The translations under genes were made by a program, and so were the position numbers. Of a stretch of 40,582 bases of DNA, positions 4,720-7,182 are shown one piece after another. Below the pieces are notes generated by a model. That model did no database searches and had not been told where the DNA came from. It saw nothing but the letters and a program-made list of their open reading frames with translations. How positions within the stretch are numbered: position 1 is the stretch's first letter; each line of letters opens with the position of its first letter. The DNA is from a virus (lineage: Duplodnaviria > Heunggongvirae > Uroviricota > Caudoviricetes): positions 1 through 40,582 of the IMG/VR virus record IMGVR_UViG_2778261692_000003, one strand, 5' to 3'.

Positions 4720-4797
4720 ATGCACAGAGATATGCTGAATATTGCGTTCTACATATTTGGTTTTTGCACGTTCCTGGTGTTTGCGAAGTTATTCTGA
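4720..4797 (+). CDS. 25-codon hydrophobic small ORF (MHRDMLNIAFYIFGFCTFLVFAKLF) downstream of mnt
   Basis: Hand-translated; GGAGG located 5 nt upstream of the ATG; single predicted TM-like segment; overlaps 3' end of convergent ejection-protein gene; could be chance. Confidence 0.2.
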   Translation: MHRDMLNIAFYIFGFCTFLVFAKLF

Positions 4798-7182
4798 CAG
4801 CGCATCAGACTTAGCCCCCTGAGTCAGGGCGTTAATGGCCTTTTGTGCCTGCTGCATGGCTTTCTCAAAGGCTGTTGATCCGCGTGGGGTGTTTGCCATT
4901 CGGAGCATTGCATTTCTGAATGGCTCGCTCTCATATGCGCGAGTAAGAAGTCCGTAGCTTACCGCTGCGCCAGTTGTCGCAGGGTTCATTGCTGTCCCAT
5001 ATCCGATAATGAACGGGATGGTTTGCTGCCCTGTTGGTGTTGTTACTGCCGCTTTTGCAGCCTGCTGCGTGGATTGCAGGTAGTTTTTCAATCCTTTCAG
5101 ATAAGCGGCTTCCTGACCTTTAAATGTGATGCCAGTCTGGTTTTGCAGGATGTTAAGCTGTCGAAGGAACTGGTCAGGGGAACCACCTGATTTCTCCATC
5201 GCCTTTCCAATGATGCCATTGCGCATTTGCGCCCTGCCAACACGACCAACTGAGTTATACAGCGTCTTAATTTCCGATTTGTTCTTGCTGAATAGCATGT
5301 TGTTGACAACTTCCGGCGTCAGGTCGCCTTTCATGAGAACATTCTTCAGCCTGGTATTCTTTAGTTTCGCCGCTTCGTCAGCGTAGACGGCATTGGCCTG
5401 CTGATATTTACGGAGAGTATCGTTGCCAAGATTCTGACCAATGGCACCATTGATATCGTCGGTCATTGCCTTGTAAACGCGCTGAATGGCAGCATCGGAA
5501 CGGTTTGGTAACACTGGTCGCTCCCCCTTCACGTCCATTCTGAACTGGCTGCGCAGATCGCTTAATTGCTTCAAATCCAGATTTACCGGACCATCAGGAC
5601 CAGCATTGCGAACAAGCTCATCACGATAGGACTGAAGTTTTGAAATAGTCTCGTTATCAGCAACCTTACCAAGCTTCTGCAGGTTAGATATTTCTGTATC
5701 AATCTGCTGAATTGCTCTTGCAGGCTGAATGTTTATTCCCGCCATAGCATTCTGAACCTGCTCAAGACGGTTCCCTGCAGCACGACGAATTCCTGATGTT
5801 TTCGCTTTAAGGCTGTCAATAACAACAGCTGGATCATACTCACCGAATTTATCAGCAAATCTCTGCACCAACTGGCTTCTCGCTTCCTGTTGCGTTGCTC
5901 TCATTCCGCTTGTGCCAGCCAGGGGGATATTTTCCGCTGTCGTCTGCGCCATTTTTCCGACGCGGGAAATGGGTTGTAACAGGTCTGTGGTGTGCAGAGG
6001 AACTCCTTCACGTTCTGCAAATCTGATAGCCTGTTGCGCTTCTGGTGCTATCGAACCACGAACACCACGATAAGCAGCACCTAATCCACGTCCGGCAGCG
6101 TTAATAGCACCGCCAGCCAGCACACCAACGCCTAAATCGGTGGCGAGTGCTTCCGCATCATCTTTCGCACTGTTTGCAGCAAGTGATCCAACTGCGTTTT
6201 CTGCGAGAAGGCGAGTTGCCACCTGAGCAATTCGACCAGCAAGTGTTGGTGCCTGTGCTGCCGCTCTCTCAACGCCAGCAGGAGTGAGGTAAGGCAATGC
6301 TTCAGCAAATACCCTTCCCTCTGTCGTTTGTGGAGTCAGCGCGCCTTGCTGAAGGCCAAAGTCCTGCTCTAATCCCTGCGTTGTTACTCGTGGTGCTGGT
6401 TGATATGTACCATCGCCAATGCCGAGTTTACCGCCAGCCCAAGCCGCCGCGCTTGTTACAGCATCAGTGAGTTCAGCAGGTATGTTCGCTACGTTGATTC
6501 CTGCCTGTAGTAAGCCGCGCCCGGTTTCAGCAAGTCCATTACCAAGGTCAGACATTATTCCGCCTTGCTGCTGAACAGGTTTCGGTGCGACAGAACTTAC
6601 GGGTTGAGGTGGCTGCTGACTGGCTGCCTGCTGCTCAATCTGAGCAAATGGATTATTTGGGTCTGACTGCACGCCTGATGCCGATACTTGTTCGGATGAC
6701 TGTGCTTCCAGTTGTGCAAACGGGTTGTTAGGGTCTTGCTGAGGATGTACCTTTGCAGAGGTGGCGCGCTGTTCGACTGTTGAGTCTGTCACCGGGTCAC
6801 CCGCCCATTGAGCAAAGCGATCATCAACGTAACCGCGGCCTTCAGGTCCTGGCGTATATTCACCACGCTTTGCCTTCATAACGTTGCCGGGACCGTCGTG
6901 ATAAGCCTGAAGAGCGTCACGCCAGTTACCAAACTGCTGGTACATCTTTGCCAGATAGCGCGCGCCAGCGTCAGCCTGATATTCGGGGTTTTGCATTTGC
7001 TCATCGGTATAACCCATATCACGCCATGTCCCAGGCATGACCTGAGTCAATCCTACAGCCCCGGCGGAGCTTACTGCGGCAGGGTTGTAAGAAGACTCCT
7101 TGGCACCCAGTGCAGTCATCAACCCTTCTGGCACACCGTAACGTGCGCCAGCCTGCTCTAACAAATCACGGTAATTAGCCAT
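4789..7182 (-). CDS. DNA ejection/injection protein (P22 gp16 position) with N-terminal lytic transglycosylase (SLT) domain
   Basis: 797 aa; N-terminal GAKESSYNPAAVSSAGAVGLTQVMPGTW...YHDGPGNV motif of soluble lytic transglycosylases; last gene of ejection-protein trio; internal DPNNPFAQ(L/I)E tandem repeat. Confidence 0.75.
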   Translation of the reverse strand: MANYRDLLEQAGARYGVPEGLMTALGAKESSYNPAAVSSAGAVGLTQVMPGTWRDMGYTDEQMQNPEYQADAGARYLAKMYQQFGNWRDALQAYHDGPGNVMKAKRGEYTPGPEGRGYVDDRFAQWAGDPVTDSTVEQRATSAKVHPQQDPNNPFAQLEAQSSEQVSASGVQSDPNNPFAQIEQQAASQQPPQPVSSVAPKPVQQQGGIMSDLGNGLAETGRGLLQAGINVANIPAELTDAVTSAAAWAGGKLGIGDGTYQPAPRVTTQGLEQDFGLQQGALTPQTTEGRVFAEALPYLTPAGVERAAAQAPTLAGRIAQVATRLLAENAVGSLAANSAKDDAEALATDLGVGVLAGGAINAAGRGLGAAYRGVRGSIAPEAQQAIRFAEREGVPLHTTDLLQPISRVGKMAQTTAENIPLAGTSGMRATQQEARSQLVQRFADKFGEYDPAVVIDSLKAKTSGIRRAAGNRLEQVQNAMAGINIQPARAIQQIDTEISNLQKLGKVADNETISKLQSYRDELVRNAGPDGPVNLDLKQLSDLRSQFRMDVKGERPVLPNRSDAAIQRVYKAMTDDINGAIGQNLGNDTLRKYQQANAVYADEAAKLKNTRLKNVLMKGDLTPEVVNNMLFSKNKSEIKTLYNSVGRVGRAQMRNGIIGKAMEKSGGSPDQFLRQLNILQNQTGITFKGQEAAYLKGLKNYLQSTQQAAKAAVTTPTGQQTIPFIIGYGTAMNPATTGAAVSYGLLTRAYESEPFRNAMLRMANTPRGSTAFEKAMQQAQKAINALTQGAKSDALSE

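Follow-up and report, generated by a model that had tools for sequence, protein, structure and literature searches.

Among short-tailed phages, the conduit that carries DNA across the Gram-negative envelope is well resolved for T7 only. The N-terminal part of T7 gp16 (gp16-N), consisting of a lytic transglycosylase (LT) domain and a 'molecular tape' (aa 157-228), attaches to the C-terminal region of the tube protein gp15 and stabilises it, and the T7 LT matters only where peptidoglycan is highly cross-linked (PMC8954989). It is in stationary or low-temperature cells that the T7 gp16 LT counts. In the conduit of P22-like phages, the periplasm-spanning tube is ascribed to gp20 and the membrane-bound part to gp16 (PMC10461980), and a 2022 review describes the transglycosylase function of gp16 as absent from this group (PMC8954989). 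The only virion muralytic protein described for P22 is gp4, a tail accessory factor (PMC5380687). Here we analyse a window of 40,582 nucleotides (nt), positions 1 to 40,582 of IMG/VR record IMGVR_UViG_2778261692_000003, which is a complete P22-like (Lederbergvirus-type) prophage. The predicted product of its open reading frame (ORF) at 4789-7182 is an ejection ('DNA transfer') protein of the P22 gp16/Sf6 gp13 type with an N-terminal LT module. Behind the enzyme this module bears two copies of a short peptide, DPNNPFAQ(L/I)E, and our main subject is the relation of this module to the neighbouring protein gp20.

At 797 aa (85 kDa), the protein is the biggest of three syntenic ejection proteins, as an earlier note on this DNA had supposed. 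It matches PHROG 770 ('DNA transfer protein') over aa 108-797 (E=8.9e-239) and PHROG 21143 over aa 1-207 (E=2.2e-144), and its database homologs carry PF26808. The protein is built as a mosaic: aa 1-206 match the N-terminus of Sf101 gp13 without a difference, both peptides included; this identity ends at about aa 206, and identity to Sf6 gp13 begins at aa 208, with 97.1% of residues shared between aa 208-797 and Sf6 gp13 aa 76-665. The body beyond the joint is presumed to be the membrane-active DNA-transfer part. Judged from homology only, the protein would be packaged in virions, ejected at infection and needed for DNA delivery. A hydropathy scan of the protein found no strong transmembrane segment (Kyte-Doolittle maximum 1.36 at aa 345-363). 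The full-length AlphaFold2 (AF2) model is all-helical and of low confidence, with a mean predicted local distance difference test score (pLDDT) of 46 from a shallow alignment (72-99% identity). The parts of the protein lie in the window as follows.

4789-7182, minus strand: target ORF, gp16 homolog, 797 aa plus stop
6802-7182, minus strand: family-1 (Slt70-type, GH23) LT domain, aa 1-127, from Pfam, the Protein Data Bank (PDB), AF2 and Foldseek
7096-7098, minus strand: codon of E29, the predicted catalytic glutamate, motif K-E-S, from alignment with Slt70 E478
6736-6801, minus strand: conserved post-enzyme segment, aa 128-149, ..VEQRATSAKVHPQQ, which runs into motif copy 1
6706-6735, minus strand: motif copy 1, DPNNPFAQLE, aa 150-159
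6664-6705, minus strand: variable 14-aa spacer of fixed length, aa 160-173
6634-6663, minus strand: motif copy 2, DPNNPFAQIE, aa 174-183
6562-6633, minus strand: Q/P-rich linker up to the mosaic joint, aa 184-207, from the switch between Sf101 and Sf6 identity
4792-6561, minus strand: Sf6 gp13-type all-helical body, aa 208-797, from the 97.1% identity, PHROG 770 and AF2

Sf6 gp13 and P22 gp16 share with this protein the genomic slot after gp7 and gp20 and the PHROG 770 body. They differ at the N-terminus, where Sf6 gp13 has a 75-aa non-enzymatic module (MAKAWKDV..) in place of the 207-aa LT-plus-motif module and P22 gp16 one of ~65 aa (MKVTANGKTF..); the N-module of HK620 gp16 is likewise short and non-enzymatic. 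Sf101 gp13, from another Lederbergvirus, has the identical N-terminus on a P22/HK620-like body unlike that of the target, 911 aa in all, whereas the gene 16 homolog of the Lederbergvirus IME10 (locus L003) is 99% identical to the target over its full length.

We found that aa 1-127 are an intact family-1 LT with a lysozyme-like all-alpha fold. The earlier note had recognised a soluble-lytic-transglycosylase-type motif at the N-terminus, and Pfam bears this out, as the SLT profile (PF01464) matches aa 7-110 with positions 2-110 of its 117 (E=2.8e-25), scoring 88.6 bits where the cutoff is 21.3. A phmmer search of the PDB matched Slt70 (1qsa, E=4.5e-10) and set E29-S30 opposite Slt70 E478-S479. 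Across an alignment of 97 SLT sequences E29, G44, Q47, Y76, Y94 and G97 are invariant and S30 is nearly so; the catalytic glutamate on which the earlier note's assignment turned is present. In Blackburn and Clarke's LT families the consensus motifs are G-L-M-Q and A-Y-N-x-G; their counterparts here are G44-L45-T46-Q47 and A93-Y94-H95-D96-G97, in which M to T and N to H are conservative variants. An AF2 model of aa 1-215 was confident over aa 1-127, with pLDDT of ~87-98 over aa 1-110. Foldseek searches with the LT-domain model returned LtgA, Slt70, Pseudomonas Slt, MltE, MltC and MltD at probability 1.00, and T7 gp16 (9jyy_I) at a TMq of 0.51. The domain is predicted to be active and would act in the periplasm, cleaving MurNAc-GlcNAc bonds and leaving 1,6-anhydroMurNAc as family-1 LTs do. 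E. coli Slt70 and the other family-1 LTs (MltC, MltD, MltE, LtgA) share with it the catalytic fold, E-S, G-L-x-Q and A-Y-x-x-G; unlike them, the phage protein is without signal peptide, lipobox or superhelical U and L domains, and it reaches the periplasm from outside, by phage ejection. P22 gp4, for its part, is an unrelated neck protein, whereas the LT of the window phage sits on an ejected internal protein.

T7 gp16 (internal virion protein D) is also the largest of three syntenic ejection proteins and also begins with a family-1 LT followed by an extended segment; by tblastn, the N-termini of T7-like gp16 proteins are ~33-35% identical to our LT domain over aa 4-119. Beyond the LT domain similarity is undetectable, and the lengths differ (1318 against 797 aa), the body being of the Sf6 gp13 type and not that of T7 gp16 (about 1100 aa). 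A search of the PDB with the full-length protein matched LT domains only, T7 gp16 chains being absent from the sequence matches, and PHROG 342 matches aa 3-189 only. We conclude that the protein would work like T7 gp16-N and yet is not a member of the T7 gp16 family. The tethers differ as well: two discrete identical motifs at fixed spacing here, a ~70-aa tape in T7. As a separate observation, T7-like gp16 proteins, including that of Kvp1 (L009; aa ~199-208), have a conserved (K/Q)-P-F-(A/G)-K-D-(F/Y)-W inside the 'molecular tape' region, loosely like N-P-F-A-Q-(L/I/F) but one residue out of register.

Past the enzyme, the segment aa 128-149 has Q138, A140 and A143 invariant and T141 nearly so across relatives whose aligned N-terminal regions are 43-95% identical, and among Lederbergvirus-type sequences its column conservation is 89%. 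It leads into the first of the two peptides. DPNNPFAQ occurs exactly twice in the protein, at aa 150-157 and 174-181, 24 aa apart. An exact 8-mer repeat appeared by chance in 3 of 20,000 composition-preserving shuffles of the protein; in the linker, aa 121-215, Q makes up 17.9% of residues and A, P and S 11.6% apiece. The earlier note had called the copies tandem; the two copies and their Q/P-rich linker stand, but they are not head-to-tail, and at the DNA level Tandem Repeats Finder found no tandem repeat, the sole detectable repeat being a 16-nt direct repeat of 75% identity at 72-nt spacing. Over the eight DPNNPFAQ codons the copies differ at 6 of 24 nt, every one a synonymous third position. 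Since the copies are only 18/24 nt identical, the differences are synonymous and the repeat finder returned nothing, conservation acts on the peptide and not on the DNA. Column conservation, computed on eight Lederbergvirus-type sequences with identity down to 72%, is 94% for copy 1 and 99% for copy 2, against 54-58% for the spacer and downstream linker, the spacer itself standing at 54%. To judge from these sequences, DPNNPFAQ(L/I)E is a short linear motif (N-x-F-[A/D]-[Q/E]-hydrophobic) under purifying selection, not a DNA repeat. In the AF2 model each copy forms a DPNNP N-cap and then a short helix, with pLDDT 43-61 (for copy 1, helix 156-167 at ~52-61); this low-confidence helix would be compatible with a peptide that folds upon binding.

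The informative relatives came from an exhaustive search of representatives and from IMG/VR scans; word-indexed searches that used only the N-module yielded chiefly small cellular SLT proteins and passed over the long phage ones. The two NPF motifs are exactly 24 residues apart in 110 of 112 SLT-bearing 90%-cluster representatives, the exceptions being one internal deletion and one P-to-L variant; the earlier note had proposed comparing copy number among relatives. Three copies occur in one of the representatives, P0150. In relatives that share 50-63% of SLT-region residues (Murrayvirus IME_EC2, Sortsnevirus IME279, Skarpretter, Kosakonia phages and several metagenomic lineages), one motif stands at the extreme N-terminus and one after the enzyme domain. 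The form there is N-x-F-[A/D/G]-[Q/E/K]-[F/Y], with N-terminal copies such as MANIFDQF, MANFFDQF, MANPFAQF and MANMFAQY and the second copy ~20 residues past a conserved Q-x-A-T-S-A-R segment behind the enzyme. An unbiased comparison of 7-mers between the N-flank and C-flank recovered the motif pair in 15 of 20 proteins, with a shuffle p<=0.004 in 11.

Copies from the same protein are more alike than copies from different lineages (exact permutation, 2/5040), the pairs being NPFAQL/NPFAQI, NIFDQF/NVFDQF, NFFDQF/NFFDQF, NMFAKY/NMFGQY and NPFAQF/NPFAQF. Because copies within one protein resemble each other most, both copies appear to see the same co-evolving partner. Our target protein starts MAN|YRDLL, and from the alignment the window lineage seems to have lost the N-terminal copy together with ~35 residues; the number of motifs stays two there because a second copy exists downstream. 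The copies are no simple tandem duplication but two instances of a short motif that flank the enzyme in relatives and whose number, spacing and sequence are under selection.

The motif pair is also found without the enzyme. At loci L138 and L157 a MANFFDQFD ... (G/A)NFFDQFD pair surrounds an unrelated domain of ~95 aa (aa ~17-115 of the L138 gp16), with no SLT domain; in L054 the same domain is added to an SLT module, past the second motif. Its sequence is, in brief, GNIDIHNRPVV..LIPTV.., and at greater length ..GNIDIHNRPVVKNPDG(T/S)ISTVR..(E)VLIPTVS(D/E)DGRIM.D.EA.D.....G.H.G.FD.P.DATA.A..LHN.QA.EY. Searches of Pfam and PHROG with this domain returned no significant match, and it may be an alternative periplasm-acting cargo. 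Since the pair in L138 and L157 brackets a domain other than SLT, the motif is part of a tether or bracket and not of the enzyme fold.

We next consider the gene immediately upstream. From gp20 aa ~120-445 through gp16 aa 1-207, the window is one block, ~100% common to Sf101 and IME10. The tail of Sf6 gp12 is unrelated to that of the window gp20, which is the candidate partner of the motifs.

7186-7272, minus strand: gp20 C-terminal tail, aa 417-445, QASIDYLKQHPELSIDFINRYGYLPSLGQ, candidate docking partner of the motifs

In all SLT-seeded loci gp20 ends in a conserved ~28-aa element, A-x-(I/L)-x-Y-L-x3-P-x7-F-x3-(Y/F)-G-(Y/F)-L-P. A second scan started from the conserved N-terminal part of gp20, to keep the junction itself out of the selection, and both scans were pooled (loci L011-L071 and L075-L159); a scan of genome contigs with the gp20 N-terminus gave 5 loci only, the degenerate pattern being a poor one. 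Among the 95 unique gp20/gp16 pairs, five types of gp20 tail correspond one to one with five types of gp16 N-module, with zero off-diagonal cases.

gp20 tail ..GYLP element with motif-bearing gp16 N-modules: 41 unique pairs
gp20 tail ..KFTVE with gp16 N-module MKVTANGKTF..: 22 unique pairs
gp20 tail ..SLWGD with gp16 N-module MAKAW..: 20 unique pairs
gp20 tail ..NKYLGG with gp16 N-module MAYSREQL..: 6 unique pairs
gp20 tail ..GQWQPM with gp16 N-module MATNVGLPEG..: 6 unique pairs

The same gp16 N-modules are found on at least three different gp16 body types. Recombination, then, parts the N-module from the gp16 body freely and, in these 95 pairs, never parts the gp20 tail from the gp16 N-module. 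This pattern suggests a co-adapted interface between the gp20 C-terminus and the gp16 N-terminus in all P22-like phages, LT-bearing or not. A separate candidate relation, in which the gp20 tail of motif-type phages would equal the N-terminal mini-domain of Sf6 and HK620 gp13 (Y-x4-P..KAQ..Y.F), was rejected: hhalign put the two in the same register, but with P=0.13 and a probability of 0.45%.

The explanation towards which we lean overall is that of an ejection protein with a swappable module of LT and tether, whose motifs dock onto gp20. By homology, such a protein would lie inside the capsid and, at infection, be expelled through the tail after or with gp7 and gp20. If T7 gp16 is a guide, the LT domain would cut peptidoglycan glycan strands locally, where the gp20/gp16 conduit crosses the sacculus. 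The two motifs would serve as bivalent docking peptides that hold the enzyme module at the distal, C-terminal end of the gp20 tube, perhaps by spanning two neighbouring gp20 subunits, an arrangement that the fixed 24-aa spacing would fit. On the most economical reading, the gp20 C-terminus and the gp16 N-module would together make up the gp20-gp16 interface, and the docking of the motifs on gp20 would be analogous in function to that of the T7 'molecular tape' on gp15. The Sf6-type helical body would, following the P22 literature, act at the inner membrane, and only the N-terminal module is expected to act in the periplasm. The earlier note's view of the whole as a periplasm-spanning conduit protein is not well supported, the tube of P22-like phages being attributed to gp20.

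An extension that we hold only tentatively, and think on balance doubtful, is that the motif peptides are a general 'cargo bracket' of P22-type ejectosomes, clamping exchangeable periplasm-acting cargo onto neighbouring gp20 tails at the distal end of the tube. If so, the LT would be the cargo here and the ~95-aa domain the cargo in L138, L157 and L054; the bracket would explain that gp20 tail and gp16 N-module are never split by recombination, and it would be the first defined gp20-gp16 interface in P22-like phages. At the least, the motif and its co-inheritance with the gp20 tail provide a concrete, testable hypothesis for the gp20-gp16 junction and for the plugging-in of accessory enzyme domains. 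Should the motif be unimportant, the finding shrinks to an ordinary, already annotated virion-associated lysin.

Several points weigh against docking of an active enzyme on gp20. Both the muralytic activity of the LT domain and the contact of the motifs with a partner are things that we infer. Perfect co-inheritance could be plain linkage, because the gp20 tail and the gp16 N-terminus adjoin in the DNA, and the sampled loci and prophages are phylogenetically non-independent. The gp20 tail is only loosely conserved (..QW.E.F.GIEPPQPGDF) in the motif-bearing L067 and Kosakonia-phage lineages. The models do not give the bound conformation of the motifs, as their pLDDT is 43-61 whether in isolation or within the full-length model, a poor one. 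T7 gp16 has a K-P-F-A-K-D-F-W (aa 204-211) that resembles the motif weakly, with the register off by one residue. Finally, the LT module is probably dispensable in many conditions, because P22 and Sf6 infect well without an LT on gp16 and P22 virions have the muralytic gp4. The scattered occurrence of the module in phages that are otherwise alike suits an accessory that is useful under some conditions.

Of the alternatives, the one that survives best is that the motifs are docking peptides for a partner other than gp20: the scaffold, the portal barrel or the coat during packaging into procapsids, gp7, the gp16 body, or a host periplasmic protein. We regard this as plausible but rather unlikely. 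All of the evidence for selection on the motif is indifferent to the identity of the partner. The TolB-binding epitope of colicin E9 contains ..ENNPW.., which loosely resembles DPNNPF and the GPW(E/S)(K/N)Y of P0154, P0162 and P0194. Ejection proteins must moreover enter procapsids, and those of P22-like phages sit near the portal (PMC8954989). What such a partner leaves unexplained is why the module and the gp20 tail are always inherited together although bodies are exchanged freely. The gp16 body is made less likely by the presence of the same motif on bodies of both the Sf6 and the P22 type, and confidence in the motifs is not raised in the full-length AF2 model, itself poor; for a host protein, one would not expect the motif sequence to differ between phages of the same host genus, since the target would be conserved.

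It is improbable that the motifs are proteolytic processing sites at which the enzyme domain is cut loose from the gp16 body, either ahead of ejection or after it. Motifs that flank a cargo domain in distant relatives would suit cleavage, and P22 gp7 is, according to an annotation note, N-terminally processed by the host OpdA. Yet in most lineages one copy starts at residue 3, where cleavage releases nothing, and in the window protein both copies lie on the same side of the enzyme; neither the fixed 24-aa spacing nor the concerted evolution of the copies would be expected of cleavage sites.

We strongly disfavour, as very improbable, a neutral internal duplication within a floppy, low-complexity linker that has no specific function. 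The linker is indeed Q/P/S/A-rich and predicted to be flexible, and a 24-aa period suits an old duplication. Neutrality is hard to square with nucleotide differences that are synonymous in 6 of 6 cases, with motifs conserved at 94-99% next to flanks at 54-58%, with a spacing fixed in 110/112 representatives, and with the recurrence of the motif both in relatives at 50-63% SLT-region identity and around another cargo domain.

Least probable of all is that the repeats are short homology 'linkers' for recombinational exchange or deletion of the cargo module at the DNA level, for while the module is mobile, its SLT domain being present, absent or replaced between the same flanking motifs, and the window lineage looks as if its N-terminal copy had been deleted (MAN|YRDLL), the copies are only 18/24 nt identical with their differences at synonymous sites, the best direct repeat is 16 nt at 75%, and across lineages nucleotide conservation above amino-acid conservation was not observed.

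Docking on gp20 remains the reading that we prefer, and some neighbouring architectures are recorded here beside it. P0155 and P0197, gp16-like proteins, begin with a P22-type mini-domain (MDVxLPNGxxxxxVPxGT..) followed by SLT. A second architecture (P0154, P0162 and P0194) combines two N-terminal G-P-W-(E/S)-(K/N)-Y peptides with a Q-P-W after the SLT domain, and a third lineage (P0147) has repeats of the A-F-L-(K/S/A)-G type. Kosakonia phage Kc166B (L005) has its LT-plus-motif module of 310 aa and its body of 734 aa annotated as separate ORFs (coding sequences 3908-4840 and 4854-7058); the gp16 homolog is either truly split there or broken up by a frameshift or a sequencing error.

As a protein the target is not new: its sequence is common and its LT domain is already annotated automatically. 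Over its full length it shares 98-99% of residues with many E. coli prophage proteins (99% with hundreds of proteins in the databases) and 72-89% with proteins of Cronobacter, Klebsiella aerogenes, Kosakonia and Enterobacter, and most of its homologs are named 'lytic transglycosylase domain-containing protein'. Of 5426 complete E. coli genomes, 70 have the LT-bearing module, in each case in the chromosome, and the LT-bearing version is found as well in prophages of Cronobacter, Klebsiella aerogenes, Kosakonia and Enterobacter and in virulent phages of several genera. The protein represents a P22 gp16 variant that joins a T7 gp16-like enzymatic head to a P22-type body. Because LT-bearing gp16 is widespread in P22-like phages, the statement that these phages lack the function (PMC8954989) is too broad. 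A literature search found no paper on LT-bearing gp16 of P22-like phages, and an earlier account may exist within papers on gp16 mosaicism; it likewise did not find the motif pair, its spacing, the alternative cargo or the one-to-one coupling of gp20 tail and N-module, for which an earlier account is also possible.

Annotations of related proteins vary. Sf101 gp13 is labelled 'transglycosylase' or 'lytic tail fiber protein'. The IME10 ortholog (NC_019501, 31064-33456) is unannotated in three IME10 records. Conversely, homologs of the Sf6 gp13 type that are 665 aa long and have PF26808 only, without SLT, bear the LT-domain name in Salmonella phage VSe13 (L010, coding sequence 1500-3497) and in protein clusters P0396 and P0399; the name looks like a transfer from LT-bearing mosaic relatives.

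The other features of the prophage are these.

1-1158: integrase
1356-2489: O-antigen acyltransferase
2512-4365, minus strand: tailspike, with P22 head-binding domain
4406-4699, plus strand: Mnt/Arc-type repressor
7183-8520, minus strand: gp20 homolog (Inj_translocase)
8530-9204, minus strand: gp7 homolog, PF25688 (P22_gp7)
9179-9661, minus strand: gp14 (DUF2824)
9658-10506, minus strand: needle, with Sf6-type knob
10506-11924, minus strand: gp10
11934-12395, minus strand: gp4 homolog (PF11650)

DUF2824 (gp14), P22_gp7 and Inj_translocase (gp20) lie directly upstream of the target ORF on the same strand, and the gp20 stop codon abuts the ATG of gp16. The order gp14-gp7-gp20-gp16 matches the P22-like late operon, with the tailspike region beyond the target ORF. 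With both a gp4 homolog and an LT-bearing gp16, the window phage would have two candidates for a muralytic function.

As listed, the gp7 ORF encodes 224 aa, of which the P22_gp7 profile matches only from profile position 25. The first ~40 residues are 30-35% identical to gp7 of Sf6, Sf101 and P22, and further in the identity is 82-95%; the N-terminus is either a separate mosaic segment or the product of a miscalled start codon. The tailspike ORF as listed starts 16 codons upstream of MSDITANVV. Because the Pfam head-binding domain begins at residue 17, the true start is probably the second Met, at window positions 4317-4319. The receptor-binding part of this tailspike is pectate-lyase-like and differs from the tailspikes of P22 and Sf6. 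The ORF at 4406-4699 converges on the target gene; its 97-aa product combines an Arc-like ribbon-helix-helix domain (aa 18-60) with an Mnt C-terminal domain (aa 68-93) by Pfam and is an Mnt-type repressor of the immI region; the Sf101 counterpart of this gene bears the RefSeq label 'partition protein ATPase'.

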